From Anaerolineales bacterium (GTDB taxonomy: Bacteria > Chloroflexota > Anaerolineae > Aggregatilineales > UBA2796), in NCBI GenBank assembly GCA_015075625.1, contig JABTTZ010000001.1:2047021-2111020 (forward strand): a stretch of DNA of 64,000 bases, written 5' to 3'. Made by a program: the position numbers and the translations under genes. Below are positions 2,371 to 22,860 of this stretch, one piece after another. How positions within the stretch are numbered: position 1 is the stretch's first letter; every line of letters begins with the position of its first letter. The notes beneath the pieces are model-generated. The model had not been told where the DNA came from and did not search any database. It saw nothing but the letters and a program-made list of their open reading frames with translations.

Positions 2371-2994
2371 TTAGGTCTTGCGACCTCTAGGGCGTCCGCT
2401 GGCATTCGTTCGTTTGCCTTGCGTCTTGCCCTTCGCTGGAAACGCCGACGTTTTTACGGAGAGATCACGTTCCGCAACGCGATCCCCCCCGTCTGTGCGT
2501 CCCTTTTGTTCAGACCAGCGCTCGGCGGCAACTTCGGCATAGCCCTGCTGTTCAGCCAGCAGTTTATCGATCTCCGCTCGAACACTCAACAAGTTATCCA
2601 GCCCCATGTAAACAATCGCATAGCGGATATAGGCGATGGGGTCAATGTCTTTCAACCCGGCAATGACCATATCTCCAACAACACGGCTGCTTACTTCCGC
2701 CCTCCCCACCGCTTGCAGGTTCATCTCGATCTCATCGACAAGACGATCCAGTGCGGCAGCGGGTATTGGGCGCTTGGCACAGGCATTCCAAATGCCTCGT
2801 TTCAACTTATCGCGGTCAAATTCCTCACGATCCCCATTCGTTTTGATCAGAACGGGAGTCACCGCTAAGGGGCGCTCGTAGGTCGTGAAGCGTTCGTGAC
2901 AGTTCTGACACTCCCGCCGCCGCCGGATACCGTTTTTAATATCCGTCGTATCCAAGACCTTTAGGTCGCTGCTGTCACAGTAAGGGCATTGCAT
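2371..2994 (-). CDS. nrdR: Transcriptional repressor NrdR (zinc ribbon + ATP-cone), with about 50-aa basic C-terminal extension
   Basis: MQCPYCDSSDLKVLDT...CQNCHERFTTYE zinc ribbon followed by ATP-cone-like region; located directly upstream of nrdJ on the same strand. ORF track starts at 3009 (MGYVVMQCPYC); the second Met (2994) matches the canonical NrdR N-terminus. Confidence 0.8.
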   Translation of the reverse strand: MQCPYCDSSDLKVLDTTDIKNGIRRRRECQNCHERFTTYERPLAVTPVLIKTNGDREEFDRDKLKRGIWNACAKRPIPAAALDRLVDEIEMNLQAVGRAEVSSRVVGDMVIAGLKDIDPIAYIRYAIVYMGLDNLLSVRAEIDKLLAEQQGYAEVAAERWSEQKGRTDGGDRVAERDLSVKTSAFPAKGKTQGKRTNASGRPRGRKT

Positions 2995-3628
2995 AACCAC
3001 GTAGCCCATCTATGCTGTTTGTGAAAAATGACCACATCCCCAATGACGCCACGCAATTTACGTAACGTCAACGATAATACCGCCACATATGGGGTCTCAG
3101 CATTCATGCCCTCCCAGATATGGTACTATCATGCCTACACTGTAACACAGGTCGGAGGAGATTTCAAGTGATCGAGTGGTTGTCTTTTGGTTTGAAAGTA
3201 GTATGTTTTTTCCGGTAGCAGAACATCTGCTATTTAACAAGGGACGTTCCATAAAGGTTTTTCTAAAATAGGTATACGTCGTGATGATTCAGCAATCATC
3301 GGATGAATCAAGGGCATGTTATAACAGGGCTATGTATTAAATTTTGAGGAAAGGTTTTAATTTTCTAACGTGACAGAACAGGTGTACTTCAAACGAATTT
3401 GACCCCTTCAGAGGGAATGAGAGGGGTAAGGGGCGATCTTGCCACAAACCAAAAAACAATCTGTGTTTGGGAGAGCGGGATTGTGAGATGTGCATAGTGC
3501 CAGAAGGTGCTGATTTGTTTCGGCGTCACGGGCTTGAAGGGGATGATGGGCTGTCTCCGGCGCTGGCGTAGGGGGCTGACTGTAGGGTTTGCTTGGTGTG
3601 GTGTACAAGGGAGGTTATGGGGATAGGA

Positions 3629-3879: not shown

Positions 3880-4608
3880 ATGAACACAGCGGAAATTATG
3901 GCAGCGTTGGAGGCGGCAGGGACGGCACAAAACCGAAAGATTGCCAAGCGGCATGGGGTAGATGATAACGTTTTTGGCGTGCTGCGCTCTGAGGTGAATA
4001 AACTGGTGAAGCAGATCAAGATCAACCATACGGCTGCGCTTGAACTGTGGGAAACTGGTAATTTTGATGCGCGGACGGTTGCCACGATGATTGCCGATCC
4101 ACAGAAAATAGACGAGGCGACGCTCACCCATTGGGGGGAGACAACACACGACTATGGGACGGCGGGAGAGGTTTCCAACATTATTGCCAAAACACCGTAC
4201 ATACGGGCGTTTATGGAGCGCTGGACAAACGATGAGGGGGAGTGGCTAGGGCGCATCGGATGGCTTTTGTTGTCGCACCTTGCCGCTGGGGATAACAGCC
4301 TGCCTGATTCGTTTTTCCTCCCCTATCTGGCAACCATTGAGGAGGGCATTCATACGGCGAAAAACCGCACCCGCGATGCGATGAACACTGCGCTAATCAG
4401 TATTGGGACGCGAAATGCCGCGTTAGAAGGACCCGCTTATGCTGCTGCCAAACGGATCGGGAGGGTTGAGGTCGATCACGGGCAGACAGACTGCGAAACG
4501 CCGCTGGCGATCCCGTATATGGATAGGATCAAGGCACACCGTGCCAAAAGAGCGGCAGAAAAAGAGGCGAAAAGCGCTGCGGCTAAAGCGACTAAGGGAA
4601 AGAAATAA
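3880..4608 (+). CDS. DNA alkylation repair enzyme (AlkC/AlkD-type HEAT-repeat DNA glycosylase family)
   Basis: N-terminus MNTAEIMAALEAAGTAQNRKIAKRHGVDDNVFGVLRSEVNKLVKQIKINHTAALELWETGNFDARTVATMIADP matches the DNA_alkylation family signature. Strong SD. Confidence 0.75.
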   Translation: MNTAEIMAALEAAGTAQNRKIAKRHGVDDNVFGVLRSEVNKLVKQIKINHTAALELWETGNFDARTVATMIADPQKIDEATLTHWGETTHDYGTAGEVSNIIAKTPYIRAFMERWTNDEGEWLGRIGWLLLSHLAAGDNSLPDSFFLPYLATIEEGIHTAKNRTRDAMNTALISIGTRNAALEGPAYAAAKRIGRVEVDHGQTDCETPLAIPYMDRIKAHRAKRAAEKEAKSAAAKATKGKK

Positions 4609-4993: not shown

Positions 4994-7900
4994 ATGACTC
5001 TTACATGGCGCGATTTTGTTCAACGCTGGACGGCGAGCGCCCTCGGTGAACAACAAGCCGCCCAAAGCCATTTCAACGAACTCTGCCGCTTAGTGGGGCA
5101 TAAAACACCCACCGAACTGGACCCACTGGGTGAATTTTTCACCTTTGAGGAACAAGTGACAAAGGCAACAGGTGGGCGGGGGCGGGCAGATGTCTGGTAC
5201 AAGGGGAAATTTGCTTGGGAATACAAGGGCAAGCACAAAGACTTAGATGCCGCCTATGCCCAACTGCTGGCATATAAGGGCAGTTTAGGCAACCCACCGC
5301 TGCTGATCGTTTCGGACATGGTGGAATACCGCATTTACCCCCAGTGGGTGAACACCAGCGGGCAGCCCTTCATCTTTCGCAATGCCGATTTGTTGTTTCC
5401 AGATGCACAGCGGTACATCGTATGGCTTTTGGAAGACCCAGACCGTTTTAAAGAACTGCGCGAAGATGAGCTTCGAGTACGCGAACAACTGACCACCAAG
5501 CTGGCGCAAGAATTCGCCCATCTCAGCGATTTGGTACGCAAACACCAAGACCCTAACGATCTTTGGAGTGACTATCACATTGCCCGTTTTTTTGCGCGGC
5601 TAACCTTTTGTTTGTTTGCCGAAGATGTTCAACTCATGCCGCGCCCCTTTGACCAACCTGTTTTTCGGTATCTTACCGATGGCGCACGCAACCTTCCCGA
5701 AGATTTTGTGGCAGAGATGACGCGCTTATTTATGGCGATGGATGGGCGTCAATCTGGCTTTGTGATGCGACACGTCCCCTATTTCAATGGGGGCTTGTTT
5801 AACGTCGATGACGATCCCGCCCACCTAGTTTTTGATTTGGCGAAAGATTCCGCCATGATCGATCTCTTAGAAAAGATCAGCAAGCGTGATTGGCGTAAGG
5901 TGAACCCGACCATCTTCGGCACACTCTTTGAGGCAGCCCTTGATCCGGCAAAGCGGGCGCAGTTGGGCGCTCACTATACCAGCGAGGCAGATATTCGCCT
6001 TGTTGTTGACCCTGTGTTGATGCAGCCACTTTACGACGAATGGGCGTTGACATTGGAGGAGGCTGAACCGCTCTTTCAAACCCTTTTTGATGGCGCTTCT
6101 CCCCGCCAAGAAGAGACCATTCGCGCTCGGCTGACCCTGCTTCATGACCGGATGATGTTTCGCCTTGAGACCACACAGATTCTTGATCCGGCGTGTGGGT
6201 CGGGAAACTTTCTCTATGTCAGCCTTCGGGCGCTGAAAGACCTTGAAGCACGAGTCCGCAAGACCTTTGAGCCACTTGGCTTGCCGTTTCGCGACGTTGT
6301 CACGCCGCGCCAACTCTACGGCATCGAGAAAGACCCCTATGCGGCGAACTTGGCGTTTGTCGTTATCTGGATTGGCTACTTACAATGGCGCTACGAAGAT
6401 CAGGGCGTGTTAAGTTTTAGAACACGGGTCAGCCGCCCCAACCCTCGGCATTTGCCACACCCCATTATCCAAGACAAATACCCGGACGAAACCATCGATC
6501 ACATCCTGTGCGAGGACGCCCTCTTGCGTTACGACGCGGAGGGCAAGCCCTATGAGCCGGAGTGGGTGGCGGTGGATGTGATCATGGGCAACCCGCCTTT
6601 TTTGGGGGGCAGCCGTCAACGCAGAGAGCTGGGCGGAGCTTACCTTGACGATCTCCAGAGGCTGTATCAAGGGCGGTTGGCAAGGGATAGCGATCTTGTC
6701 TGCTATTGGTTTGAGAAAGCACGCGCCCATCTAGACCAGGGAAAGGCTAAGCGGGTTGGGTTTATCGCCACCAATTCGATTCGGGGTGGTTCAAATCGCC
6801 TTGTCTTGGATCGCATCAAAGCGACGGGCGATATTTTCATGGCATGGAGCGATAATCCATGGCTCCTCGCCGGTGCAGCGGTGCGGATTTCGATTGTCGG
6901 CTTTGATAACAAGGTGCAGACAGCACGAATGCTCGATGGGGCAGTCGTCGAGAACATCCATGCCGATTTGACCGCTGGCGCTGATCTAACCGGGGCAAAG
7001 GTGCTGGCAGAAAACGCTCGCATTTGTTTTCGCAGTGACGAAAAAGGCGGATCGTTCGATATTGACGAGGCAACGGCAAGGGCGATGTTGGCGGCGAAAA
7101 ACCGCAGTGGAAAATCGAACGCCGATGTCGTGCGTCCGTACATCAATGGGCTTGATGTGACACGCGGCAGACGGAACAGGTGGGTCATCGATTTTGGCGT
7201 AGATACTACCGAAGCCGAAGCCGCCCACTACAAAATGCCCTATGAGTATGTGAAACGGATGGTGAAGCCCGAACGCGATATGGTGAACAACGAGCGCCAC
7301 CGTACCTATTGGTGGATTCACCGTATTCCTGCTGGTGATATGCGCGAGGCAATTCGACCTCTCAAGCGCTTTATCGCGACGCCTAGTGTGGCAAAACACC
7401 GCTTGTTTGTATGGGTCGAAGGCGGGATCATTCCCGATCATCAACTCTATGTCTTCGCCCGTGACGATGATTACTTCTTCGGCGTCCTCCACAGCTATAT
7501 TCATGAACTATGGTCGCTGCAGAAGGGAACATCCCTTGAAGATCGCCCTCGTTACACGCCCACAACAACCTTTGAGACCTTCCCGCTGCCTTACCCGCCG
7601 GGCAAAGAGGACACCGCATCGCCCCTCTATCAGGCGATCAGCACGGCGGCAAAGGCGCTCCACGAGGGGCGCGAGGCATGGCTGCATCCAGTGGAATTAG
7701 CGGAATTGGGGGCGACGGCAAAGGGCAAAGCGCTTTCCGAACGGACTCTGACAAATCTTTACAATGCGTTGGCAGTTCATCGCGCTGAGCCGTCCATGGG
7801 CAAGGGGAAGGGGGGGAACGGCAAAAACGGGGATAAACCCGTGAAGGCGGCAGCGCAATTCGCCCCCCAACTGGCAGCACTCCACGAAGCATTGGATAGG

Positions 7901-8020
7901 GCTGTATTGAGCGCTTACGGGTGGACTGATCTGGCTCTCACCGCCCGCACTCCGGCAGGGCAAGAAGCAATTTTACGGCGCTTGTTGGCGTTGAATCAAG
8001 CGCGAATATCGAAAGCGTAG
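4994..8020 (+). CDS. MmeI-family Type IIL restriction-modification enzyme (N-terminal PD-ExK nuclease + gamma-class N6-adenine methyltransferase + TRD in one polypeptide)
   Basis: D-X9-EYK nuclease motif (ADVWYKGKFAWEYKGK); FCLFAED and LGAHYTSEA blocks identical to MmeI; MTase motif I DPACGSGNFL and motif IV GNPPF; TNSI block; 1008 aa. Confidence 0.85.
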   Translation: MTLTWRDFVQRWTASALGEQQAAQSHFNELCRLVGHKTPTELDPLGEFFTFEEQVTKATGGRGRADVWYKGKFAWEYKGKHKDLDAAYAQLLAYKGSLGNPPLLIVSDMVEYRIYPQWVNTSGQPFIFRNADLLFPDAQRYIVWLLEDPDRFKELREDELRVREQLTTKLAQEFAHLSDLVRKHQDPNDLWSDYHIARFFARLTFCLFAEDVQLMPRPFDQPVFRYLTDGARNLPEDFVAEMTRLFMAMDGRQSGFVMRHVPYFNGGLFNVDDDPAHLVFDLAKDSAMIDLLEKISKRDWRKVNPTIFGTLFEAALDPAKRAQLGAHYTSEADIRLVVDPVLMQPLYDEWALTLEEAEPLFQTLFDGASPRQEETIRARLTLLHDRMMFRLETTQILDPACGSGNFLYVSLRALKDLEARVRKTFEPLGLPFRDVVTPRQLYGIEKDPYAANLAFVVIWIGYLQWRYEDQGVLSFRTRVSRPNPRHLPHPIIQDKYPDETIDHILCEDALLRYDAEGKPYEPEWVAVDVIMGNPPFLGGSRQRRELGGAYLDDLQRLYQGRLARDSDLVCYWFEKARAHLDQGKAKRVGFIATNSIRGGSNRLVLDRIKATGDIFMAWSDNPWLLAGAAVRISIVGFDNKVQTARMLDGAVVENIHADLTAGADLTGAKVLAENARICFRSDEKGGSFDIDEATARAMLAAKNRSGKSNADVVRPYINGLDVTRGRRNRWVIDFGVDTTEAEAAHYKMPYEYVKRMVKPERDMVNNERHRTYWWIHRIPAGDMREAIRPLKRFIATPSVAKHRLFVWVEGGIIPDHQLYVFARDDDYFFGVLHSYIHELWSLQKGTSLEDRPRYTPTTTFETFPLPYPPGKEDTASPLYQAISTAAKALHEGREAWLHPVELAELGATAKGKALSERTLTNLYNALAVHRAEPSMGKGKGGNGKNGDKPVKAAAQFAPQLAALHEALDRAVLSAYGWTDLALTARTPAGQEAILRRLLALNQARISKA

Positions 8021-8110
8021 CAGACACGTTTTTATGCCGCTCACCTTGCGTTCCCCTTCGTTACACTATAGAATCTCTCAAAAGACGCGGATAAACGGCG
8101 GCAATTCGGC

Positions 8111-9310
8111 ATGTCCACACGACGCTTTCCCGACGACAACGCCCCCTCTCCGGCTTCTCCCCCAGACCCAACACCCGGGAGCGGGACGGCGCTGCCTACC
8201 CGCCGTCCGGTGATGCCCGGACAAACACCGGGGACGCCCGTCAGCCGCGCTCCCAAACGGACGGGCAAGAGCATCCAGCATATGCCGCGCACACTTAGCC
8301 AAGTGCTGAACGATGCCAACGAACAGGTGGTGCGTGGCGACCTCAGCGAATATGTCCCTTTGCCAACAGGCTTTGATCCCCTTGATGGTTTGATCGGCGG
8401 CGGGCTGCGCAAAACAGAACTCGTCCTGCTTGGTGGGGCGCAAGGCATTGGCAAGACAATTGCCGCCGTCCAAATGGCGCGAAACATCGCCATGCGCCCT
8501 GATCAATATGTGTTCTACCTTTCCTACGAACACACCGAAACACACCTCATGAGCCGCTTGCTCTGTTTGGAGAGCATCAACCCGCCAGAGGTTGATCTGC
8601 GCAGCGGGCTGAAATTGAAAGATTTGTTCGATACGATCATCTCCCAACGGGCGCGGGAAATCTTGGGGCGCGATAACCGTGCCGAGTCCCTTCAAAGCAT
8701 TCTGCGGGAAAATCCGCGCACCTCGATGGCGCTGGCACGGCTCTCGAAGTATGCAGACCGTTTCATCATGGTCAAGGCAAGTCCGGCGGTGACGACCCTG
8801 AGCGCCATTCGAGAGATGACCGGACGGCTGGCAGAGGCGACGGGCGGCAACCTGACCGTCTTTGTCGATTATTTGCAGAAGATCGCCATTCATCCCGAAC
8901 GGGCGGCGGACGAGAACGACAAAGTGACCATTGTTGTGGAGGGGCTGAAGGATATTGCGCTCTCGTTGGGCGTCCCCGTCTTAAGCATCGTCGCCAGTGA
9001 TCGGGATGGCTTGCGGGCGAAGCGTCTGCACCTTTTTCATCTGCGGGGGAGTTCGGCGCTCGATTATGAGTGCGATATTGCGATCATCATGAACAACAAG
9101 TATCAGATTTTGGCGAAGGATCACATCGCTTTTAATCCCTATCAGGGCAAGCAGTTCCGCGATTGGGTCGTTTTTACGGTGGAGAAAAACCGCGCTGGGC
9201 GGGCGATGATGGATATGGAATTCCAACTGCACGCCCCCTACTTTGCCTTTGACCCACGCGGACAGCAAGTCCAACAAACGTTGATCGACGATAAGATCAT
9301 CGAATCCTGA
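8111..9310 (+). CDS. DnaB-like helicase C-terminal (RecA-fold) domain ATPase lacking DnaB N-terminal domain; Pro/Ser/Thr-rich disordered N-terminus
   Basis: TGFDPLDGLIGGGLRKTELVLLGGAQGIGKTIAAVQMARNIA (DnaB linker + Walker A), DYLQKI (Walker B, as DnaB IDYLQLM), LKDIALSLGVPVLSIVASDRDG. First about 90 aa are low complexity (PSPASPPDPTPGSG...). Confidence 0.7.
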   Translation: MSTRRFPDDNAPSPASPPDPTPGSGTALPTRRPVMPGQTPGTPVSRAPKRTGKSIQHMPRTLSQVLNDANEQVVRGDLSEYVPLPTGFDPLDGLIGGGLRKTELVLLGGAQGIGKTIAAVQMARNIAMRPDQYVFYLSYEHTETHLMSRLLCLESINPPEVDLRSGLKLKDLFDTIISQRAREILGRDNRAESLQSILRENPRTSMALARLSKYADRFIMVKASPAVTTLSAIREMTGRLAEATGGNLTVFVDYLQKIAIHPERAADENDKVTIVVEGLKDIALSLGVPVLSIVASDRDGLRAKRLHLFHLRGSSALDYECDIAIIMNNKYQILAKDHIAFNPYQGKQFRDWVVFTVEKNRAGRAMMDMEFQLHAPYFAFDPRGQQVQQTLIDDKIIES

Positions 9311-9311
9311 C

Positions 9312-10220
9312 TTGAGCGCCCCGATTCAGATCGTCACCGACAGCGCGGCACAGTTCCTTCTGCCCGGCTTTGCCGCCGATCAGGGAATTACGATTATTCC
9401 CTTAGAACTGGAATTAGGCGGCAGGCGCTACCGCGATGGCGTCGATATTGACGCTGAGATGATCGCCCGCCATGTGGCGGCAACGGGCGAAGCGCCGCGC
9501 CTGCTCCCCCCCAGTGTGGAAACCATTGCAGGGGTCTATGCCAACCTCTACCGTGAGTCGAATCGGATTCTCTCCGTTCACCTCTCGCGGGCGGTGCATC
9601 CCATGTGGGAAAAGGCGAAATCTGCCGCCGAAACGCTCTTGGGGCGCTGCGATATTGCCGTCTTTGATTCGCACAGCCTTGCCGCCGGACAGGGCTGGCT
9701 TACCGAGGCAGGGGTGCGCCTGACCCGTGAGACGAATTCCCTTGACGACACCGTGCGCGAACTGCGCAAGCTGATTCCCCATATTTACTCTATTTTTTGC
9801 AGCGAACGTCTCGATTACCTTTACCGTGCCGGACTCCTGTTGGAATCTCAAGCCGTTTTGGGGAATATGTTGGCAATCAAGCCGTTTCTCACCCTAGAGG
9901 ACGGTGAATTGGTCGTCATGGAGAAGGCGCGATCCAAGCCACAGGTTGTCGATAAGCTGATCGAATTCGTCACCGAATTTGCCGCCGTAGAACAGCTTGC
10001 CGTACTGCGTGGGGCATCCGCCGCGCCGGAGGTGATGCGCTCCCTTGCCGAGCGGATGCGAGAGGAATTCAGCCCAACGCCCTACCCCATCCTCACGGCG
10101 TCATCCGTGTTGGCATCTTTGCTTGGCACAGAGGCAATTGGGATCATGATTCTTGAGCGTGAATTAGGCAACCGCGGGGGGGATTATGACGATGACTTTG
10201 ACGGTGAGGATGATGAGTAG
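9312..10220 (+). CDS. DegV family (fatty-acid binding) protein
   Basis: IQIVTDSAAQFLLPGFAADQGITIIPLELELGGRRYRDGVDIDAEM matches the DegV/EDD fold N-terminus. TTG start 2 nt after the upstream stop; its stop is 2 nt before the next ATG. Confidence 0.75.
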   Translation: MSAPIQIVTDSAAQFLLPGFAADQGITIIPLELELGGRRYRDGVDIDAEMIARHVAATGEAPRLLPPSVETIAGVYANLYRESNRILSVHLSRAVHPMWEKAKSAAETLLGRCDIAVFDSHSLAAGQGWLTEAGVRLTRETNSLDDTVRELRKLIPHIYSIFCSERLDYLYRAGLLLESQAVLGNMLAIKPFLTLEDGELVVMEKARSKPQVVDKLIEFVTEFAAVEQLAVLRGASAAPEVMRSLAERMREEFSPTPYPILTASSVLASLLGTEAIGIMILERELGNRGGDYDDDFDGEDDE

Positions 10221-10222
10221 CC

Positions 10223-12430
10223 ATGTCCGATGTTCTCGAAGCACTGGTGGGGTATGTTCTGATTGCGGGCGGACGGGCGGTGAGCGCCCCTCCCCCCGGC
10301 GCCATTGTTGAACTACCGCCCCGCAAAACCCAGCGCGGACGGGAACAAGACACATTCTTCGCGCTCATCGTGCCAGCGGGCAAAACACACCAACCCGCCC
10401 CCTTTTATGAGGGGTTGGTGCGCTATGCCGCCGATCTCTACTTTCGGGCAGGGGGGAGCGTCACCAGCGGGCTGCGCGATGTGCTGAACGCAATCAACCA
10501 GCAGCTTTTGGATCACACCGCAAACACCGGAAATAAAGCTGAAATCGGCATGGCGGCGGTAGTCTTGCGCGGGGCGGAAATTTACCTAGCGAAGGCGGGC
10601 GCGACACTGTGCGCGCTAAAACAAACCGACGATTTCACCACCCTCCCCGCCGACCTCAGCGATGCCCTCAACAGCGACCCCTTTAATCTTGGCACAAGCA
10701 CACACCCCGATGTGCGGCTTGCCCGCTATGAGGTTGCCTCTGGCGATGCGCTCTGCCTTGCCGATCTGAACCTTGCCCGCATTGAGCCAGTAGCACTGGA
10801 AGCAGCCCTTGCCAAAGGCAATCTTCCCAATGTGATCGAGGGCATTAAGGCGCTTGCCCCTGCCCAAATCCAAGCGATGATTATCGAATTTGTCTCCACA
10901 GACACGCCCGATCCGGTGCTGCCGCCCTCGCGCCCGGTCAGCACGGCTGCCCCTAGCAGCGGCGTCCTCGTCACCAGCGTCAGCAAACCGCCCAAACGTC
11001 CCACAGGGACAATCCGTATTCCGCTCACCCCCTCAACGCCCGCCAAACAGACGCTCACCCTCCCCACTCAGGAAGGGACGGTGGAGGCATCAGAGGGAGA
11101 TGAGGACACAACACCCCCAACGGAGGGAGCGCCGACCCTTCTCTCGCGGATAGGCAGCGCGGCGGGGTGGTTTGGCGGTGGGCTCAGCCGTGCGGTGGAT
11201 CGGCTGCTGCCCGAACCAACAGAAGATGGGTCGCCGCGCCTTCCGGTCATGTTCGCCGCGGCGCTGGCAATTGCCGTCCCTGTGCTGATTGTCTTTGTGA
11301 TCGTTGCCCTGCGGCTCTCGCAGTTCGATATGACGCAATTTGAACAACAGGTGCAAGAGGTGTTGAAGGCAGCCGAACAGGCGCGGGTGATCGCCCTTGC
11401 TGATGTGCCAAATGCCCGCGCCGCATGGATGGAAGTGCTGCGTCGTGTGGAGGGCGTGGAAATTGCTTCCGGGCGGACGGGCGACCCTGAACTGCTGAAA
11501 GTACGCGCCGAAGCGCAAGGGATTCTCGATCAGTTTGACAAAGTGACGCGGCGAACGCCGGTTGCCCTGCGCAATTTTGGGACAGGCGCCGTGATGAGCG
11601 ATCCGATCATACGCGGCGGGGCGGATGTCTACACGCTGGATCGGGCGTCGAGCGCCATTTACCGCGACACCTTGAATCCGAACAGTGTCGCCCTCATCAC
11701 CCGCAACGCGCAGCCAGTGGTTCAACGGGGGCAGTCGGTGGGGGCGTTCTCCGTCCGCCAGATCATCGACATGGCGTGGGTCAGCGAGGGCGGCACACAG
11801 CGGGCAAACGTCCTCGCTGCGCTCGATACACAAGGGCTGCTGATCACCTACTCGCCTACCTTTGCTCCGGCAACGGCACAGCGCTTACCAGGGGCAGATT
11901 TATGGGGCGATCCGGTGGCGATGTATGTGTGGCGCGGCAACCTTTACCTGCTTGACCCAACGGAAAACCAGATTTGGCGCTATCGTCCGGTGGGGAATAG
12001 CTATCCCAACCCGCCAGAAACCTACTTTGAGCCGGATGATCGTCCCGACCTCTCGTTAGGTGTTGATCTCGCCATTGATACGGCGGGGAATGTCTATGTT
12101 TTGTTTGCCGATGGGCTGCTTGGCAAATACAATGGGGGGACGCCGCTGAAGTTCGTCTACACGGAAATGCCCGATGGCGGCGCTCCCCGCAGCGCAGCCG
12201 CGATGTTCCTTGACGCCGATTCCCCCCTTCCAGCAATTTATGTGGTCGATCCCAAAGATCAGTCCGTCTACCAAATCACCCTATCGGGGGCGTTTCGCTA
12301 TCGGTTTCGGGCGGCAGATGGGGCGATGTTCAGCGGGGTGACCAGCGTATTTGTGACGGGGAACACCGTTTATGTGGCGGCGGGGTCGGTTTTGTACTCA
12401 TTTTCCCTTAACGACCTGACGGGGGGGTAG
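10223..12430 (+). CDS. Single-pass membrane protein: N-terminal divergent PP2C-like domain, one TM helix, C-terminal beta-propeller-like repeats
   Basis: PP2C-like blocks ALIVPAGK (DGxGG position) and MAAVVLRGAEIYLAKAGATLCAL (GDSR block with Asp replaced); TM LPVMFAAALAIAVPVLIVFVIVAL; C-terminal NVYVLFADG / TVYVAAG repeat units. ATG coupled to DegV stop. Confidence 0.55.
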   Translation: MSDVLEALVGYVLIAGGRAVSAPPPGAIVELPPRKTQRGREQDTFFALIVPAGKTHQPAPFYEGLVRYAADLYFRAGGSVTSGLRDVLNAINQQLLDHTANTGNKAEIGMAAVVLRGAEIYLAKAGATLCALKQTDDFTTLPADLSDALNSDPFNLGTSTHPDVRLARYEVASGDALCLADLNLARIEPVALEAALAKGNLPNVIEGIKALAPAQIQAMIIEFVSTDTPDPVLPPSRPVSTAAPSSGVLVTSVSKPPKRPTGTIRIPLTPSTPAKQTLTLPTQEGTVEASEGDEDTTPPTEGAPTLLSRIGSAAGWFGGGLSRAVDRLLPEPTEDGSPRLPVMFAAALAIAVPVLIVFVIVALRLSQFDMTQFEQQVQEVLKAAEQARVIALADVPNARAAWMEVLRRVEGVEIASGRTGDPELLKVRAEAQGILDQFDKVTRRTPVALRNFGTGAVMSDPIIRGGADVYTLDRASSAIYRDTLNPNSVALITRNAQPVVQRGQSVGAFSVRQIIDMAWVSEGGTQRANVLAALDTQGLLITYSPTFAPATAQRLPGADLWGDPVAMYVWRGNLYLLDPTENQIWRYRPVGNSYPNPPETYFEPDDRPDLSLGVDLAIDTAGNVYVLFADGLLGKYNGGTPLKFVYTEMPDGGAPRSAAAMFLDADSPLPAIYVVDPKDQSVYQITLSGAFRYRFRAADGAMFSGVTSVFVTGNTVYVAAGSVLYSFSLNDLTGG

Positions 12431-12458
12431 GGCGGGGCTGCGCCCCACCCGCCCCCTA
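12423..12458. terminator. GC-rich imperfect hairpin between convergent genes (possible bidirectional terminator)
   Basis: gggggtagggcggggctgcgccccacccgccccctacagg between stop of 10223..12430 (+) and stop of GH9 (-). No clear T-tract. Confidence 0.3.
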
Positions 12459-12462
12459 CAGG

Positions 12463-14787
12463 CTAACGACTGAGATAGGCAGCCAGCGCCACAAAGGTGG
12501 CGTTGGCGTCAATCGTTGGTTCGTTGGACGCCCATGAATCAAAGTCATCGGTATAGCAGAGTGCCGGCGGCGCACCCGCGCTCCACAAGCCCATGAGTGC
12601 CGCATCACCGCCCGCATTTTCACGGTTTGCCCCTTCGGTTACCACACCGGGAAGTGCCAGACGGAAGCGGTAGCTCACGTTATGATGCGGATAGAGGACG
12701 CTGTTTTCACCCATCCCGCTCAGATAGAACTTCGATACTGGGTTTTTCCCTAGCAGATAGTGCATCTGCGCCGCTGCCACATGGTGGTAATCCTCGTTGG
12801 GATCGATGTCATAGGCAAGCATCAGGTATAAGCCATGCGCCAGCGCCACCTGATTTGACCCCCAGACATAGGCAAACCCCGCTGCACTGTGGTTGAGCGC
12901 AACGCCATAGCCTGTTTTGCGAGCAACTTCGACAATTTCTCCGGCGCCGGCTAAAAATGCCTCTCGTACTGCCGCCTGCTGCTGCGGATCGGCCTTAGGG
13001 GCGGTGAGATAAGCATAAAGCCCCTGCGGAAAGGTGTTCGCCCATGTCATCGTTAGCTGCGGCGCCGCTTGGGGAAATAAAGTCGCAACCGCCCGCTCAT
13101 AGTCGGGATTGCCTGTTGTCTTGAACAACTCTGCCGCCGCCCACAGGCGGGTTGCCTCCTCACTGCCCACATAGTCATAGCCACCCTGCATGGGGTATTC
13201 GCTCTCTGGCGGGTTTTGGAAACCGCCCTCTGGGACTTGATTGGGGTGCGCCGCCAACCATGCCCAGGCCCGTTCTGCCGCCGCCAGATAGCGATCTGCG
13301 GCATCGGGATCGATGGGGCGGAAAATCCCCGCCGCTTGCGCCATTGCCGCCGCAAAAAACGCCGTGTCATTGCTGGTAATGCCGAACACATAGAGCGGGT
13401 CGCTGTCCTCGGCGGGCAAGGTGCCAAAGTTGGGGAAGGCGCGTCCGGTCACTTTATGATGGACAGCGCCATCTTCCCGCTGCATTTTCAGCAGCCAATT
13501 CAGTTCCCAGGCAACCTCATCGAGCAGATCGGGAATGCCGTTCCCGCTTTCGGGGAGCGTCAAGGTGCTATCGGCAAAGGCGGTGGGGTTCGCCGCATAT
13601 GCATAGAGCAGTTGGTTGATAGCGAAGGCGCCGGTTGGAATGTAGCGCCCATAATCGCCGGCATCATACCAACCACCACTGACATCCATCGTTTGGGTTG
13701 GATCATCCCACAAGAGGGCGGGCGCAGTGTGACCAGCCTCCCACTGGAAGGTCGGATGATCGGGGTCAGCAAGGGCAATCCCGCTCCGCTGCCAATAAAA
13801 GAAACGGGCGGCAAGGTGCGTCACGTCCCGATAGGCATCTTCGCCAATGGTAAAGGGATAGCTTTCGCCGGCGCCTTCGGCAACAACCTTGTAAGTTCCC
13901 GCTCGCCGCAGCGAGTTAAAGCGCCCCCAATACACAGTTTGGTCGGTGTCGGCATCGGGTCCCCAGCGCACAGCTTTCCCCTTAAAGACAACTTCCCCGC
14001 TGCCCACTTCGATAATTTGAAAATCACCGACGGGAACAATGGCGACAAAGGCTTTCCGTTCGTCTGGACGGTAGTATTGGCTTAGGCGTATCATGGGCAA
14101 ATCAGCAAAAAAGGTCGTGTAATCGGGCGGTGCGTTGAGGTCTTTCGTGGAAACAACCCGAATATCATCAAACCAGAGCGTCCCCGTGAGCCGCTCATCG
14201 CCCAATGCTTCCAGCGCGATCTCAAGACTTTCAATCGGGTTGGCAGCAAAGACGGTCAATCCTTCTGTTCCCATCCATGTCAGGCGCTTAAAGGCAGACC
14301 AGGGGATCATAATCTCTTGCCACCCCTGATCGGCGCCTTCGGGGGTGTGAATCAGCGCCGCAAAGGGGGTCTTGCCCGGCGACTGCGCTGAGGTTTGCGT
14401 TGGATCATTCAGGTGAAGGACGATGTTCACCGGCAGTCCGGCTTTATCGGCGCGGAGTTTGAACACAATGCCCTCACCATCGCGCCAATCGGGGGTGATC
14501 CCGAAGTCCATTCCGATTCCGGCGTAGCCTTTTGCCGCCACGTCGAGATCAAGGCGTAGCGAGCCTATCCCGTTGAAGAACGTCTCTTGATCAATCTTCG
14601 CCGAAAACGTTGTTTTTTCGGGAGAGTTATCGGTATATGTCCACCAGCGCCCCACGACGCTTCCACCCTCATAGCCCTGATCAAAGTCATCGATCAAGGT
14701 TGCCGCTTCGGGCGACTGCCCCCGTGCGCCGTGCATGGGGAATAGAAACATAAACAGCAGAACACCTGCCAAGATGAACCGGATCAT
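12463..14787 (-). CDS. Secreted glycoside hydrolase family 9 endoglucanase with N-terminal non-catalytic (CBM/Ig-like) region
   Basis: Signal peptide MIRFILAGVLLFMFLFP; GH9 signatures GGWYDAGDYGRY, HHVAAAQMHYLLGKNP, SNEPTIDANA; SD AGGAGGT 8 nt upstream. Confidence 0.85.
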   Translation of the reverse strand: MIRFILAGVLLFMFLFPMHGARGQSPEAATLIDDFDQGYEGGSVVGRWWTYTDNSPEKTTFSAKIDQETFFNGIGSLRLDLDVAAKGYAGIGMDFGITPDWRDGEGIVFKLRADKAGLPVNIVLHLNDPTQTSAQSPGKTPFAALIHTPEGADQGWQEIMIPWSAFKRLTWMGTEGLTVFAANPIESLEIALEALGDERLTGTLWFDDIRVVSTKDLNAPPDYTTFFADLPMIRLSQYYRPDERKAFVAIVPVGDFQIIEVGSGEVVFKGKAVRWGPDADTDQTVYWGRFNSLRRAGTYKVVAEGAGESYPFTIGEDAYRDVTHLAARFFYWQRSGIALADPDHPTFQWEAGHTAPALLWDDPTQTMDVSGGWYDAGDYGRYIPTGAFAINQLLYAYAANPTAFADSTLTLPESGNGIPDLLDEVAWELNWLLKMQREDGAVHHKVTGRAFPNFGTLPAEDSDPLYVFGITSNDTAFFAAAMAQAAGIFRPIDPDAADRYLAAAERAWAWLAAHPNQVPEGGFQNPPESEYPMQGGYDYVGSEEATRLWAAAELFKTTGNPDYERAVATLFPQAAPQLTMTWANTFPQGLYAYLTAPKADPQQQAAVREAFLAGAGEIVEVARKTGYGVALNHSAAGFAYVWGSNQVALAHGLYLMLAYDIDPNEDYHHVAAAQMHYLLGKNPVSKFYLSGMGENSVLYPHHNVSYRFRLALPGVVTEGANRENAGGDAALMGLWSAGAPPALCYTDDFDSWASNEPTIDANATFVALAAYLSR

Positions 14788-14803
14788 CAGAAATACCTCC
14801 TAT

Positions 14804-15667
14804 TCACGCTTTGACTGCCCCCGCCGTCATCCCTCGCAAAAATTGACGTTGGATCAAGAACACAAGGAAAATTGCCGGAATCGTGGCGAGCGCCGCGCCC
14901 GCCATCTGGATCCCCTCCACAACTGCCCCCTGCCGCACCTGCATCTGGGCAATGCCCAAAGGCAAGGTGAACATCTCTGGCTTACGGATCATCAACAGGG
15001 GCCACAAATATTCATTCCAAATGCCCAAGAACTTGATGACCAACAGGGTGCCAATTGCCGGACGGCTGAGCGGCACCACAATGTACCAAAAGGTGCGCAG
15101 CGGACCCGCCCCATCAATACGCGCCGAGTCCAACAGTTCATTGGGAATCCCTCGCATGTATTGGGTGAGCAGAAAAATGCCATAGGCATCGATAATACCG
15201 GGAATGATCAGCGCCTCATAGCGATCCAGCCAGCCGTATACCCGTGAAAACATGTAAAAGGATGGGATGAGCGTGGCATAGATAGGCAGCATCATCGTGG
15301 CGAGCATCGTCCAAAAGAGGATCGTCCGCCCCCGAAATTTGAACTTAGCGAAGGCGAACGCCGCCAATGAATCGAGGGTGGTCACCAGCAGCAGACTAAC
15401 CCCCGCCACAAAGATGCTGTTCAGGTAGTAGCGCGGATAGTCGATCTTCAGTTCAACATTGCCCACCTTTTGCCCAAACAACAGCCGTTCATATTGAATG
15501 AAGCTAGGGTTTGAGGGGAAAAACTGCCCACTGTGCAGTTCCCCATCGGGCTTGAATGAGGTGGACACCACCCACATATAAGGAATTAAATAGAGCAGCA
15601 TCGGGATGCACAACAGTGCGGCGATGATCCATTTGACCGTTTTACCCCGTCGGGTGAGTGTAACCAT
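14804..15667 (-). CDS. Carbohydrate ABC transporter permease (MalG-like)
   Basis: EAA loop LLDSARIDGAGPLRTFWYIVVPL; 6 TM; SD GGAGG. Confidence 0.85.
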   Translation of the reverse strand: MVTLTRRGKTVKWIIAALLCIPMLLYLIPYMWVVSTSFKPDGELHSGQFFPSNPSFIQYERLLFGQKVGNVELKIDYPRYYLNSIFVAGVSLLLVTTLDSLAAFAFAKFKFRGRTILFWTMLATMMLPIYATLIPSFYMFSRVYGWLDRYEALIIPGIIDAYGIFLLTQYMRGIPNELLDSARIDGAGPLRTFWYIVVPLSRPAIGTLLVIKFLGIWNEYLWPLLMIRKPEMFTLPLGIAQMQVRQGAVVEGIQMAGAALATIPAIFLVFLIQRQFLRGMTAGAVKA

Positions 15668-15693
15668 CGAACAACCTCCAACCTTCTGCGCCT

Positions 15694-16647
15694 TTAGTCG
15701 TGTGTTGTGCCGCCTTTGAAGAAGCGTGTATTGATGAAACTGGCAACGAACATCATCAGCGTTAAGGTGATGGCAATTGCCGAGGCATAGCCAAATTCCT
15801 GTTTGGAAAAGGCGCGGTCATAGAGATAGCGGGCGATGGTCTCTACCCGATGGCGGGGATCGTTGGGGACAAGCAGCGCGGGCTGAACAAAAATCCCTAA
15901 AAGGAAGATCACCCCAGTGGTCATGATGAAAAACAAGACGTTTTGCAGCAGCGGCAGGGTGATTCGGAAAAAGAGTTGATTCTCATTTGCCCCATCCAGC
16001 CGCGCTGCCTCGTAGTATTCCGTCGGGATGTTGCGCAGGGCTGAGGAAACGATGAGAACATCCCACCCCAAGCCGCTCCAGATCAGCATCACATTTAATG
16101 CCCAGATTGCGTTTGTCCCGCCGAGGAAGTCTGCGCGTTCCCCGCCCAACGCCACCAATAACCCGTTGACGGGTCCGTAATTTGTGTTGAGAAGCTGTCG
16201 CCACAAATAGGCAATGACGACGACAGAGGTCACCGCTGGCAAGAAAAAGGTGGCACGGAAAATACCCCCCAACCAATCGGGCATCCGGTCAATCAACACG
16301 GCGATGAGGACGGCTAATGCCGCGCCGATGACCGCACAAAAGAGGGTGATCCGCAGCGTGACGCCGACACTGTTCCAAAAGCGGGCATCGTTGAACAGGT
16401 TGGTAAAGTTATCAAACACGCCATCCAGCGGAATGAAACTCTTGCCCGCATCGGCGTAAGGATCCCAGCGATGAAGGCTTAAAAAAACCGAAAAGCCAAT
16501 CGGGAACAGTTGAAACGCCAAAAATGCCAAAAAAAACGGTGCAACAAAGACATAGGGCGCGTTTTTCTCCCAGAATCGCCCTGTGCGGTATGGTTTCTCG
16601 CCCGTCAGGGTTCGGGAGGCGAACAATCGAGATGCTAGTTGAGACAT
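15694..16647 (-). CDS. Carbohydrate ABC transporter permease (MalF-like)
   Basis: EAARLDGANENQLFFRITLPLL. Start chosen at MSQLASRLF (SD GGAAGG); ORF track extends to 16755. Confidence 0.8.
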   Translation of the reverse strand: MSQLASRLFASRTLTGEKPYRTGRFWEKNAPYVFVAPFFLAFLAFQLFPIGFSVFLSLHRWDPYADAGKSFIPLDGVFDNFTNLFNDARFWNSVGVTLRITLFCAVIGAALAVLIAVLIDRMPDWLGGIFRATFFLPAVTSVVVIAYLWRQLLNTNYGPVNGLLVALGGERADFLGGTNAIWALNVMLIWSGLGWDVLIVSSALRNIPTEYYEAARLDGANENQLFFRITLPLLQNVLFFIMTTGVIFLLGIFVQPALLVPNDPRHRVETIARYLYDRAFSKQEFGYASAIAITLTLMMFVASFINTRFFKGGTTHD

Positions 16648-16774
16648 GCGAACCTTCCAGTGACCCAACGCCGCACGGTATGACAAAAGGTAGGTATGAT
16701 AGAGACAGGGCGACGACACGGGCATTGGGAAGCACCGCCAAGCGCTTGGTCCCAATGCCCGCCAGAAGAAAGGC

Positions 16775-18040
16775 TTACTTCAGCGCCGGACTAGATGCCA
16801 CCGCGTTATCGAGTGATTCTTTCACGTCGCCGCCCTCTTTCGTCACGATGTAAATCGCTTCGCCAAGATGTTCGGCAACTTCCGCCGAGGGTAATTCCAT
16901 CCCGCGCACCTGCACCGCCCATTCAGAGATCAGCTTTGCCAGCGGTACACCGAGGTACTCGTTGTCTTGGCTTAGGTCAATGTGCTGCCATGCCGTCTGG
17001 AGGGCAGGGACGCCACCGACCTTCTCATAGTAGGTTGCCATGACTTCGGGCTGTTCCATATAAACCAAGAATTGGCGGGCGAGGTCTTGTGCCTTCGATG
17101 CCTTCGGAATGGAGAAGCACGCCCCACCTGTGGAGGCGTGGTATTTCCGGTCTTCAGGACCAAAGGGCATGGGCGCAACGCCCCATTTGCCTTCCAACTC
17201 TGGGGCGACGGCTGCCAGTTCGGTGGCATACCATGAGCCACGCATCACGGCGAGAACTTCGCCATTCTTCAGCGCGGCAGCCTGATCGCCATCGGAAGCA
17301 TCGTCCCACAAGCGGGCAACTTTGTAGGTGTTGGCGAGGTCGTTGTAGAGCGTCAGCGCTGCCACCGCCGCCTCGTTGTTATAGAGGTAGGTGCTGCCAT
17401 CTTCGCTGACCAAGCGCCCGTTGTAGGGCGTCAGGAAGCCCTGATAGAACCCGTAGTAGTCATTGACACCGAGCAGAATGGCATACTGCTTGTCTTTTGT
17501 GATTGCCTGCGCAACCTTCACAAAATCGGCTGTGTTAGCGGGGAAGCCATCCAGCCCTGCCGCCTTGATTGCCGGGTCATAGATATCTTTGCGGTAAAAC
17601 ACCACATTGAAATCGAGATCGGCGGGAACGCCATATTGTTTGCCGGCGTACCCGCACAGTTCCCAACCGCCCCCAGTGAAGTCTGCCGGGTTCAGTTCGT
17701 TCTCGATTCCATCCAAAGCAACCACTGCCCCATTGCGGATCAGATCGCCCGCCCACATGGGATCAAGGGTCACCACATCAGGCGCGTTTTCCCCGGCGGC
17801 AAGCGCCGTGACCACCGCATCCCGATAGGGATCGTACTCAAACCGCTCAATATTCACCGTAACGCCCGGGTGCGCCGCCTCAAAGCCGGGTTTGATGCTG
17901 TCCAGCCAATCTGCCGTCCAAACAAACCCCCACACGGTGATCGTCTGCTCTTGGGCAGCTTGTGCCGGATGTGTGCTAGGCGCAGCGGCTATCAGCAGCA
18001 GCGCCACCACCACAAAGAGTAAACCAACTTTCTTAATCAT
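16775..18040 (-). CDS. ABC transporter sugar-binding protein (solute-binding family 1), secreted
   Basis: Signal peptide MIKKVGLLFVVVALLLIAAAP; family-1 SBP fold; SD GGAGGAG. Confidence 0.85.
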   Translation of the reverse strand: MIKKVGLLFVVVALLLIAAAPSTHPAQAAQEQTITVWGFVWTADWLDSIKPGFEAAHPGVTVNIERFEYDPYRDAVVTALAAGENAPDVVTLDPMWAGDLIRNGAVVALDGIENELNPADFTGGGWELCGYAGKQYGVPADLDFNVVFYRKDIYDPAIKAAGLDGFPANTADFVKVAQAITKDKQYAILLGVNDYYGFYQGFLTPYNGRLVSEDGSTYLYNNEAAVAALTLYNDLANTYKVARLWDDASDGDQAAALKNGEVLAVMRGSWYATELAAVAPELEGKWGVAPMPFGPEDRKYHASTGGACFSIPKASKAQDLARQFLVYMEQPEVMATYYEKVGGVPALQTAWQHIDLSQDNEYLGVPLAKLISEWAVQVRGMELPSAEVAEHLGEAIYIVTKEGGDVKESLDNAVASSPALK

Positions 18041-18124
18041 CGAACAACTCCTCCAAACCTTTCGGACATTTTGGTGATCGTTTCACACAGCGCCCCATCG
18101 AAAAGCGCCATGACTCACCCAACC

Positions 18125-19150
18125 TTAGAGCGCCATCTGCTTGCGCAGTGTGGCTAAAAACCCATCCCCTGTGGGGTAGGCGCAGCGATCCGCTGCCAAA
18201 AGCGCCGCCCCAACAACGGGGGGCTGGTTTAAACGCTGCACAACAACCTGTGGTGCAGCGGAAGCAAGCTGATCTCGAATGGTGTCAGTGAGCAAGGGGT
18301 TTGCCGCCCGAAACACGCCGCCGCCGAGGACGACATCACAATCCGTCCCCAATAGATCGAGGCAGCGCAGCATCGTGAGTGCCGCCGTACTAAGTTCTAG
18401 CCCCTGTTCGCGGATGATCCCTTGCGCAAGCGCATCCCCCGCCGCCGCTGTCTCAAAGAGCAGCGGGACAAGCGCCCGCATCTGATCGGCGGAAATCGTC
18501 CCGTTTTCGTAATCGGCAGCGAGGGTCAGGTAATCAGGCTTTTGCCATAGGCGCAAAATGGCGCCTTCCAAGAGGGTTGGCGCTCCGCGTCCATCCCACG
18601 CACGAAAGGCAGCCCCAACCGCCTCTATCGCTAGATGATCGCCCCCCGCTCGATCTCCGGTGAACCCACCGAGTGCCGGAAAGCGAAGCTCGCGCCCGTG
18701 TTGATCGACACCGCCCGCATTGAAGCCCGTCCCACAGACGACGCCGACCCCATAGGGAAAGCGGCTGCCCGCCCGAAAAATGCCGATCACATCGTTATAG
18801 ACTTCAAAGGAACAGCCCAACGGCAGCGCGGTGAACGCCTCACGCAGGCGGGTAAAATCTTGGGGAAGGTCTGCCCCCGCCATGCAAAATGCGGCGCTTT
18901 CGAGGGCAAGAGACCCAGTACCAGACAGATCAGCGCCACTTGTTTGAGCCTCTGCCACCGCCTGCCCAATAGCGCTGCGGGCATTGGCGATCACTTCTGC
19001 CATGCCTGCGGTGTGGTAATTCCCGCGCCCGCTCCGCCCTTTTCCTAAGACCATGCCCCGCCCATCAAGGATGAGGGCGTCCGTTTTTGAGCCGCCGCCA
19101 TCAACGCCGAGGAAATAGGGGGGGAGAGGTGTGCCTGCCGTGCCGGTCAT
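18125..19150 (-). CDS. BadF/BadG/BcrA/BcrD-type ATPase, N-acetylglucosamine-kinase-like sugar kinase
   Basis: YFLGVDGGGSKTDALILDGRGMVLGKG... (ASKHA phosphate-1 motif). Start at MTGTAGTP gives ATGA overlap with the upstream GH4 stop. Confidence 0.75.
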   Translation of the reverse strand: MTGTAGTPLPPYFLGVDGGGSKTDALILDGRGMVLGKGRSGRGNYHTAGMAEVIANARSAIGQAVAEAQTSGADLSGTGSLALESAAFCMAGADLPQDFTRLREAFTALPLGCSFEVYNDVIGIFRAGSRFPYGVGVVCGTGFNAGGVDQHGRELRFPALGGFTGDRAGGDHLAIEAVGAAFRAWDGRGAPTLLEGAILRLWQKPDYLTLAADYENGTISADQMRALVPLLFETAAAGDALAQGIIREQGLELSTAALTMLRCLDLLGTDCDVVLGGGVFRAANPLLTDTIRDQLASAAPQVVVQRLNQPPVVGAALLAADRCAYPTGDGFLATLRKQMAL

Positions 19151-21710: not shown

Positions 21711-21722
21711 GACAGCCCTTCC

Positions 21723-22817: not shown

Positions 22818-22860
22818 TGCCCTGTAACGTCCACCTAAAAGGAAAAAAATAACGCTCATT

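Follow-up and report, generated by a model that had tools for sequence, protein, structure and literature searches.

A DnaB_C-only ATPase of Chloroflexota and its lineage-specific gene neighbours in an Anaerolineales genome

The closest described relative of the protein considered here is DnaB, the replicative helicase of superfamily 4 (SF4) represented by the TIGR00665 model, in which an N-terminal helical domain (PF00772), the seat of the primase-binding collar, precedes a linker helix and a RecA-type C-terminal domain (PF03796). The protein is the 399-residue product of gene 1 (8111-9310, + strand, ATG start), located in a 64,000-nucleotide stretch of an Anaerolineales bacterium genome (GCA_015075625.1, contig JABTTZ010000001.1, positions 2,047,021 to 2,111,020 of the forward strand; hereafter the window). 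A second term of comparison is offered by minimal motors that we take to be single-domain hexameric members of the SF4/RecA group, namely RSF1010 RepA, the helicase half of T7 gp4, and the KaiC/ArlH-type ATPases. On the same strand, open reading frames (ORFs) and their translations place gene 2 (9312-10220, +, TTG start), coding for a DegV protein of 302 residues, and gene 3 (10223-12430, +, ATG start), coding for a membrane protein of 735 residues. Their closest described counterparts are, respectively, the DegV/FakB fatty-acid-binding proteins and the PP2C (PPM) phosphatases of the PstP/Stp1/PppA type, among which M. tuberculosis PstP consists of a cytoplasmic PP2C domain, one transmembrane helix, and an extracytoplasmic domain.

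The three genes are a lineage-specific juxtaposition of ordinary genes and do not form a conserved system, while the ATPase belongs to a previously uncharacterised and unusually strongly constrained family. The whole account, in which three unrelated genes have been juxtaposed, the ATPase is an old DnaB paralogue that acts as a motor, gene 2 is a DegV protein, and gene 3 is likely a pseudophosphatase, is the one we consider probable.

The DnaB-like ATPase and its N-terminal segment

Profile searches with gene 1 consistently lead to the C-terminal part of DnaB. Pfam DnaB_C matches residues 84-372 (3.2e-24, 86 bits), with weaker matches of AAA_25 and KaiC in the P-loop region, and the same scan returns no DnaB N-terminal domain (PF00772). 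Only the C-terminal two-thirds of the NCBIfam DnaB models align, with positions 145-423 of TIGR00665 falling on residues 49-371, and the resulting score of 78.5 bits is about 20% of the equivalog cut-off (385.25 bits). In a profile search of the PDB, the best matches are the DnaB proteins of G. stearothermophilus and G. kaustophilus (2e-15), whereas KaiC is matched at about 3e-7 and over the P-loop only; the alignment pairs residues 48-155 and 227-324 of gene 1 with residues 151-260 and 298-396 of G. stearothermophilus DnaB. Moreover, the PHROG matches are limited to generic DnaB-like and primase-helicase families, and the KaiC model (PF06745) aligns as a single domain with residues 85-151 only (30.9 bits), so that gene 1 shows neither the full length nor the CI-CII architecture of KaiC.

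The protein is made of a conserved terminal peptide, a variable linker, and a near-invariant core. The peptide, MSTRRFPDD (8111-8137, +), conforms to the family motif M-[SA]-T-[RK]-R-F-x-D-[DE], which is present in 73 of 80 related loci carrying the ATPase gene, with M1, T3, and R5 invariant and F6 kept in 67 of the 73. The linker, rich in Pro, Ala, Arg, and Ser (residues 10-57; 8138-8281, +), stands where the DnaB N-terminal domain would be and is unalignable between members; throughout the family, the segment ahead of (M/L)PRTL is 40-83 residues long and contains 20% Pro, and a direct count on the translation gives 46% Pro/Ser/Thr for residues 1-57 of gene 1. The core (8282-9307, +) comprises the linker helix (approximately residues 61-76) and the RecA-type domain, as delimited by the PDB profile alignment and by the invariant columns of the family alignment A1 (14 sequences, all members more than 70% identical).

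Invariant in this alignment are the Walker A motif GGAQGIGKT (K115), E140, the Walker B motif VDYLQK (D253), the LRGSS loop (R312, G313), and the EKNRAG motif (K359/R361), which corresponds to the K418/R420 arginine-finger motif KQRNG of G. stearothermophilus DnaB. Gene 1 thus contains a RecA-type C-terminal domain with Walker A and B motifs, catalytic glutamate, and arginine finger. It resembles DnaB in the linker helix, in the RecA-type domain with its Walker A motif, in the H1a glutamate E140 (within SYEH, where DnaB has SLEM), in Walker B (DYLQK versus DYLQL), in the LR(G/E)S loop, and in the K-x-R arginine-finger motif. Conversely, it differs from DnaB in lacking the N-terminal helical domain and hence the primase-binding collar, and also in the H3 motif, in its phylogenetic position, and in its coexistence with a true DnaB, which are treated below. 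With the minimal SF4/RecA motors it shares the condition of a stand-alone RecA-fold nucleoside triphosphatase of about 340 residues, as reflected by the AAA_25, KaiC, and PHROG matches; it departs from them in being chromosomal and housekeeping-like, off plasmids and phages, in carrying a conserved N-terminal peptide on a disordered tether, and in a likeness to KaiC that is confined to the P-loop region. An earlier note on this DNA had described a 399-residue protein that retains the linker helix and the RecA-fold motor of DnaB, with a Pro/Ser/Thr-rich segment in place of the N-terminal domain, and both parts of this description are borne out.

Family spread, constraint, and relation to the replicative helicase

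Canonical DnaB was sought in the window and in the related loci by tblastn with an E. coli DnaB query. A full-length DnaB is found in two relatives that also carry the family without the N-terminal domain (NTD), namely L002 (Chloroflexi bacterium CFX3) and L006. The L002 protein is 41% identical to E. coli DnaB over residues 6-460, reaches 543.2 bits on TIGR00665 against the cut-off of 385.25, and possesses both PF00772 and PF03796; the L006 protein is encoded by the same gene, extended to 753 residues by an intein within the RESG/SIEQD motif. Since the ATPase coexists with canonical DnaB in L002 and L006, it is, as far as sequence can tell, a DnaB paralogue and not the fork helicase in these two relatives. 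In a neighbour-joining tree built from C-terminal domains, the NTD-less proteins and a few NTD-bearing forms constitute one clade with 100% bootstrap, and a long branch sets this clade apart from a group made up of E. coli DnaB and the canonical DnaB of CFX3. Within the clade, the NTD-bearing forms take a basal or paraphyletic position that is weakly supported and is compatible with an old paralogue having lost its N-terminal domain. The suggestion that the 399-residue protein is unlikely to be the replicative helicase, made in the earlier note, thereby gains indirect backing, drawn from the relatives only, through the coexistence with canonical DnaB and the separate clade.

In both L002 and L006, about 1 kb separates the canonical dnaB from the NTD-less gene, and the two are on opposite strands. 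This adjacency was considered as a functional hint and rejected, as it comes from one closely related pair and is lost in L178, whose DnaB is 85% identical. The same two loci display a canonical replication operon of Anaerolineae (L002:5382-8912, -; L006:4690-9089, -), in which dnaB is followed by a gene for a DnaD-domain protein and then by one for a loader-like protein of 470-516 residues, endowed with a Cys-rich motif at the N-terminal end and with two DnaC/DnaI/IstB-like AAA+ modules in tandem, which would be a duplicated helicase loader.

The ATPase family occurs across Anaerolineae/Chloroflexota. A protein-database search with gene 1 returns 2876 homologues, the best 120 of which are 71-100% identical and come from metagenome-assembled genomes (MAGs) of Anaerolineae, Aggregatilineales, and other Chloroflexota; a scan with one genome per species finds relatives in 315 genomes. 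An exhaustive phmmer search yields 160 clusters (50% identity) with E < 1e-30, most of them of 325-365 residues and devoid of the N-terminal domain, together with a few longer relatives, P0195 (519 residues) and P0196 (491 residues), in which PF00772 (down to 1.3e-14) precedes a C-terminal domain of the same type. NTD-bearing members of the clade (about 490-590 residues) reside in unclassified 'bacterium' MAGs, for example at L084:8001-9551 on a 1.88-Mb contig of GCA_022072165.1, and such forms could reveal the ancestral state of the family. Remoter NTD-less members are labelled Caldilineae, Limnocylindria, Zixibacteria, and Actinomycetes. A MAG named 'uncultured Pleurocapsa sp.', a cyanobacterium (L061, CAYTME010000009.1), contains a copy of the Anaerolineae type at 70% identity, with the typical sigma-70 neighbour upstream; probably the contig was mis-binned or the MAG mislabelled. 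Many family members bear the JGI label 'replicative DNA helicase'; the family is generically or wrongly annotated, and this routine label is a mis-annotation. A literature search found no description of an NTD-less DnaB paralogue in Chloroflexi or Anaerolineae.

The constraint on the family was gauged by comparing the 343-residue ATPase core with neighbouring housekeeping proteins in matched genome pairs, by median identity. The core reaches 81.9% against 81.5% for LipA, 88.3% against 83.8% for sigma-70, and 93.9% against 77.8% for PPK1, and is conserved at least as strongly as these neighbours. A phage or plasmid origin was considered and rejected, on the grounds that IMG/VR holds no close relatives (best 21-28% identity) and that the PHROG matches are merely generic DnaB-like ones. 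Similarly, regulation of the gene by the SOS response was rejected, given that no GAACN4GTTC (LexA/SOS) box is found upstream of it in 72 loci. The extended -10-like words TGTAGAAT and AGTACAAT recur upstream of the ATPase gene in relatives.

Genes 2 and 3 and the gene order in relatives

Gene 2 encodes an ordinary fatty-acid-binding protein of the DegV/FakB type. It matches Pfam DegV (PF02645) at 9.1e-55, with 186.4 bits against a cut-off of 27, and TIGR00762 at 190.6 bits against 99.7, over the full length of the DegV model (residues 5-282). It differs from the described DegV/FakB proteins in the score on the FakB1 equivalog NF038249, which stays below threshold (77.1 bits versus 350), in an acidic tail, and in that no FakA is seen nearby. 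The C-terminal acidic tail, GGDYDDDFDGEDDE, lies at 10175-10217 of the window, and the tblastn alignment to the DegV protein of L001, the closest relative of the locus, ends before it.

Gene 3 itself has no match in Pfam, NCBIfam, or PADLOC; a Pfam scan of 29 family members gives weak SpoIIE matches in 11 and NHL matches in six. Its AlphaFold2 model, with a predicted local distance difference test (pLDDT) score of 82.8, suggests the following segments. The predicted cytoplasmic PP2C-fold domain (residues 1-227; 10223-10903, +) resembles PppA, tPphA, PstP, and Stp1 in Foldseek (6jkv, 2j86, 1txo, and 5f1m; probability 1.0, target TM-score 0.58-0.73). It is followed by a Pro/Ser/Thr-rich linker predicted to be disordered (residues 228-340; 10904-11242, +; pLDDT < 50) and by a single predicted transmembrane helix, LPVMFAAALAIAVPVLIVFVIVALRL, a hydrophobic helix in the model (approximately residues 342-367; 11246-11323, +). 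Beyond the membrane, the model places a helical domain (residues 372-439) and an NHL-type beta-propeller (residues 441-735), which, with the stop codon, extend over 11336-12430 (+). The propeller is modelled with pLDDT > 90 and finds the NHL domains of Thin (6d69) and TRIM2 (7qrv) and DFPase in Foldseek. The model is hence consistent with a PPM fold and with a six-bladed propeller fold of the NHL type.

The active site of the PP2C domain is degenerate. When the family is aligned to PstP, only D43, the first Asp, and the Asp of 'D-x-G-L' are kept out of the metal-site motifs RxxxED, DGxGG, DG, and DN; throughout the family, both the Asp of DGxGG and the C-terminal DN motif are missing. Because these are not conserved, the domain is probably inactive, and gene 3 would probably carry a pseudophosphatase. 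In its layout, gene 3 would be PstP-like, with a cytoplasmic PP2C-fold domain, one transmembrane helix, and an extracellular NHL propeller; it shares the fold with the PP2C phosphatases of the PstP/Stp1/PppA type and the architecture with M. tuberculosis PstP, and is set apart from PP2C phosphatases by the missing DGxGG Asp and DN motif, by the extracellular helical domain and NHL propeller, and by the narrowness of its family, whose 66 detectable homologues all belong to Aggregatilineales or Thermofonsia.

The three genes are tightly packed. The first junction reads TGA(9308-9310)-c-TTG(9312), with a spacer of 1 nt, and the second TAG(10218-10220)-cc-ATG(10223), with a spacer of 2 nt. The identities that the earlier note had assigned to the products of gene 2 (DegV) and gene 3 (a membrane protein with a degenerate PP2C-like domain and an extracytoplasmic propeller) agree with these results, as does the distance of 2 nt between the stop of gene 2 and the start of gene 3; as for the first junction, the tight packing it reported stands and the figure of 2 nt is corrected to 1 nt.

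The gene order was compared in the 80 related loci, with 10-kb flanks, by tblastn with the window proteins and by ORF clustering for the neighbours. The DegV gene adjoins the ATPase gene in one locus, L001 (86% identity), where the order is ATPase, DegV, DegV, RecG, with no membrane protein, and tblastn places a gene 3 homologue next to the ATPase in none of the 80. The ATPase gene usually has, upstream, a sigma-70 gene in divergent orientation (23 loci) or ppk1 (14 loci) and, downstream, lipA in convergent orientation (25 loci), which indicates that the gene is normally monocistronic. In Limnocylindria-type relatives, the paralogue stands within a same-strand string of tilS, ftsH, the paralogue, and genes for a HAD hydrolase, LigT (2',5' RNA ligase), and a LOG-like protein. 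This conserved string is seen in L086, L173, L174, and L175 (match from 6001 or 8001). Across the related loci, the gene neighbourhoods of the ATPase reveal no conserved functional partner.

The homologues of gene 3 (49-63% identity) are solitary in four of four contexts, namely pheS...nrdR-ribonucleotide reductase, metG...icd, and two others. As nrdR lies at 2371-3009 in the window, gene 3 seems to lie close to its ancestral neighbour, the two being now separated by an AlkD-MmeI-ATPase-DegV block. Next to a gene 3 homologue, downstream of nrdR, the large subunit of a class I/II ribonucleotide reductase (L081:11869-16989, 1706 residues) holds several intein and LAGLIDADG insertions. The same trio arrangement as in the window is present on 23 contigs from many samples, and these reflect one and the same species.

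The earlier note had presented the trio as a translationally coupled operon unit, a claim to be checked by neighbourhood conservation in related genomes and to be given up if the three genes did not stay together in them. The comparison shows that the gene order is not kept, since DegV is found beside the ATPase in 1/80 loci and the membrane protein and the MmeI-like gene in 0/80, and the gene 3 homologues stand alone, and the claim falls.

Upstream of the trio and outside it, an MmeI-like type IIG restriction-modification gene occupies 4994-8020 (+; PADLOC REase_MTase_IIG, 5.7e-224; Pfam MmeI_N, MmeI_hel, MmeI_Mtase, and MmeI_TRD), and the presence of such a gene next to the trio, also reported previously, is borne out. 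An AlkD-like gene for DNA-alkylation repair (3880-4608) sits upstream of it. Both are found in none of the 80 related loci, and their DNA is slightly lower in GC (0.51-0.56, versus 0.57-0.62 downstream). The two genes are probably a recent insertion next to a housekeeping gene; the MmeI-like gene is a lineage-specific insertion unconnected to the trio.

Downstream, on the opposite strand, a polysaccharide-use cluster (12463-22859, -) includes a GH9 cellulase with CBM11 and CelD_N domains, an ABC sugar transporter (two permeases and a binding protein), a BadF/BcrAD-type ATPase, two GH4 glycosidases, and a ROK/MarR-type regulator. Where gene 3 (10223-12430) and the gene at 12463-14787 converge, a GC-rich hairpin (12425-12456, -22.4 kcal/mol) is no better than in shuffled sequence (z = -1.1) and is followed by no T-run. 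Promoter and terminator scans of 7800-12700 gave nothing informative, and Rfam and tRNA scans detected no RNA family and no tRNA in the trio region.

Alternative explanations and proposed role of the ATPase family

In the account we favour, a lineage-specific rearrangement would have packed together three functionally unrelated chromosomal genes, which are probably co-transcribed in the window organism. Gene 1 would represent, in this genome, an old NTD-less DnaB paralogue that is strongly constrained and usually monocistronic. With modest confidence, the ATPase may form RecA-type homohexamers that hydrolyse nucleoside triphosphates, a reading suggested by the retention of the linker helix, the SF4 catalytic residues, the nucleic-acid loop, and the K-x-R finger, and also by the existence of NTD-bearing relatives. 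Such a motor would most likely move along single-stranded nucleic acid with no need of primase, and the N-terminal peptide, on its flexible Pro-rich tether, may dock it to a partner at the site of action.

Several observations weigh against this account. The H3 'SQ' sensor of DnaB is swapped for A-[AS]-D in the ATPase family, and the coupling to DNA may therefore differ from that of DnaB; moreover, the AlphaFold2 model of the ATPase built from alignment A1 has a pLDDT of 35.6, so that the hexamer and translocase proposal stands without backing from structural comparison. The main rival is that the ATPase is a regulatory ATPase or autokinase of the KaiC/ArlH kind, a signalling hub and not a nucleic-acid motor, as might be suggested by the missing H3 glutamine, the weak KaiC matches over the P-loop in Pfam, NCBIfam, and the PDB, the invariant Ser-Ser in HLRGSSALDYE, and a degree of conservation typical of many-partner proteins. 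DnaB is, however, clearly closest both in the PDB search (2e-15 versus 3e-7) and in Pfam (86 bits versus 31), the KaiC matches are limited to about 65 residues, a true DnaB N-terminal domain is present in some relatives, and the ATPase retains both the DNA-loop motif LR(E/G)S and the KxR arginine finger, which makes this rival doubtful. The paralogue reading is also opposed by the lack of any canonical dnaB in the 64-kb window in the E. coli DnaB search and by a metagenome scan with the L002 DnaB, in which none of 22 loci could be linked to the organism of the window or showed the paralogue less than 3 kb away. That the 399-residue protein is the sole DnaB of the organism, a replicative helicase that lost its N-terminal domain, would fit the absence of a second dnaB from the window, the JGI label of many members, and the preserved linker helix and catalytic residues; it is nonetheless very improbable in view of the canonical DnaB that accompanies the family in L002 and L006 (in L002 a 543-bit copy followed by DnaD-like and DnaC-like genes), the separate long-branch clade, and a TIGR00665 score of 78.5 bits where 385 are required.

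As regards the gene order, the spacers of 1 and 2 nt hint at co-transcription and possibly translational coupling in the window organism, and the ATPase-DegV junction is also tight in L001, with a 4-nt overlap, so that a young, lineage-specific functional link may exist. The trio might accordingly be a genuine young operon, in which the PP2C-like/NHL sensor and the DegV protein regulate the RecA-type ATPase or are regulated by it, for example as a KaiC-like phospho-switch linked to envelope or lipid status; the lack of an internal terminator and the persistence of the arrangement on the 23 contigs of the species would be in keeping with this idea. Yet nothing is conserved past the two closest relatives, with DegV in one and the membrane protein in none of the 80 loci, L001 has DegV-DegV-RecG where the membrane protein would be, the homologues of the latter are solitary, and the ATPase family is far older and wider than that of the membrane protein (2876 versus 66 homologues), all of which renders such an operon decidedly unlikely. 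A defence island, with the trio as an accessory module of the MmeI-like restriction-modification enzyme, deserves hardly any credence: the trio directly adjoins the type IIG enzyme and PADLOC gives a weak mad8 match for the ATPase (1.4e-5), but that match is a generic P-loop one, PADLOC assigns no defence system to the trio proteins and nothing to genes 2 and 3, the MmeI-like gene is absent from all 80 loci while the ATPase is always present amid housekeeping genes, and the ATPase family is without close viral relatives.

Beyond the favoured account of a paralogue motor beside unrelated genes, a wider view is conceivable, which we regard as a long shot: the NTD-less paralogues would be an essential and so far unrecognised hexameric motor of Chloroflexota, with kin in other phyla, that acts beyond fork unwinding and is recruited by the M-S-T-R-R-F-x-D-D peptide, and in the lineage of the window it may also have become linked to a pseudophosphatase sensor in the membrane and to a lipid-binding protein. 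If a motor outside fork unwinding proved true, its roles might lie, for instance, in restart, recombination, or RNA- or transcription-linked processes.

As a system, the trio is of little import, being a local accident of gene order beside an inserted restriction enzyme. The lasting interest lies in a single-domain relative of DnaB that maintains about 70-94% identity across a whole bacterial class and is as tightly conserved as sigma-70. The use of DnaB_C as a single-copy marker in Chloroflexota MAGs, and likewise any inference of their replication machinery, must reckon with this paralogue. Lastly, in a phylum where genetics is almost absent, the strong constraint and the tethered N-terminal peptide make the ATPase a defined target in the search for a novel partner or pathway.

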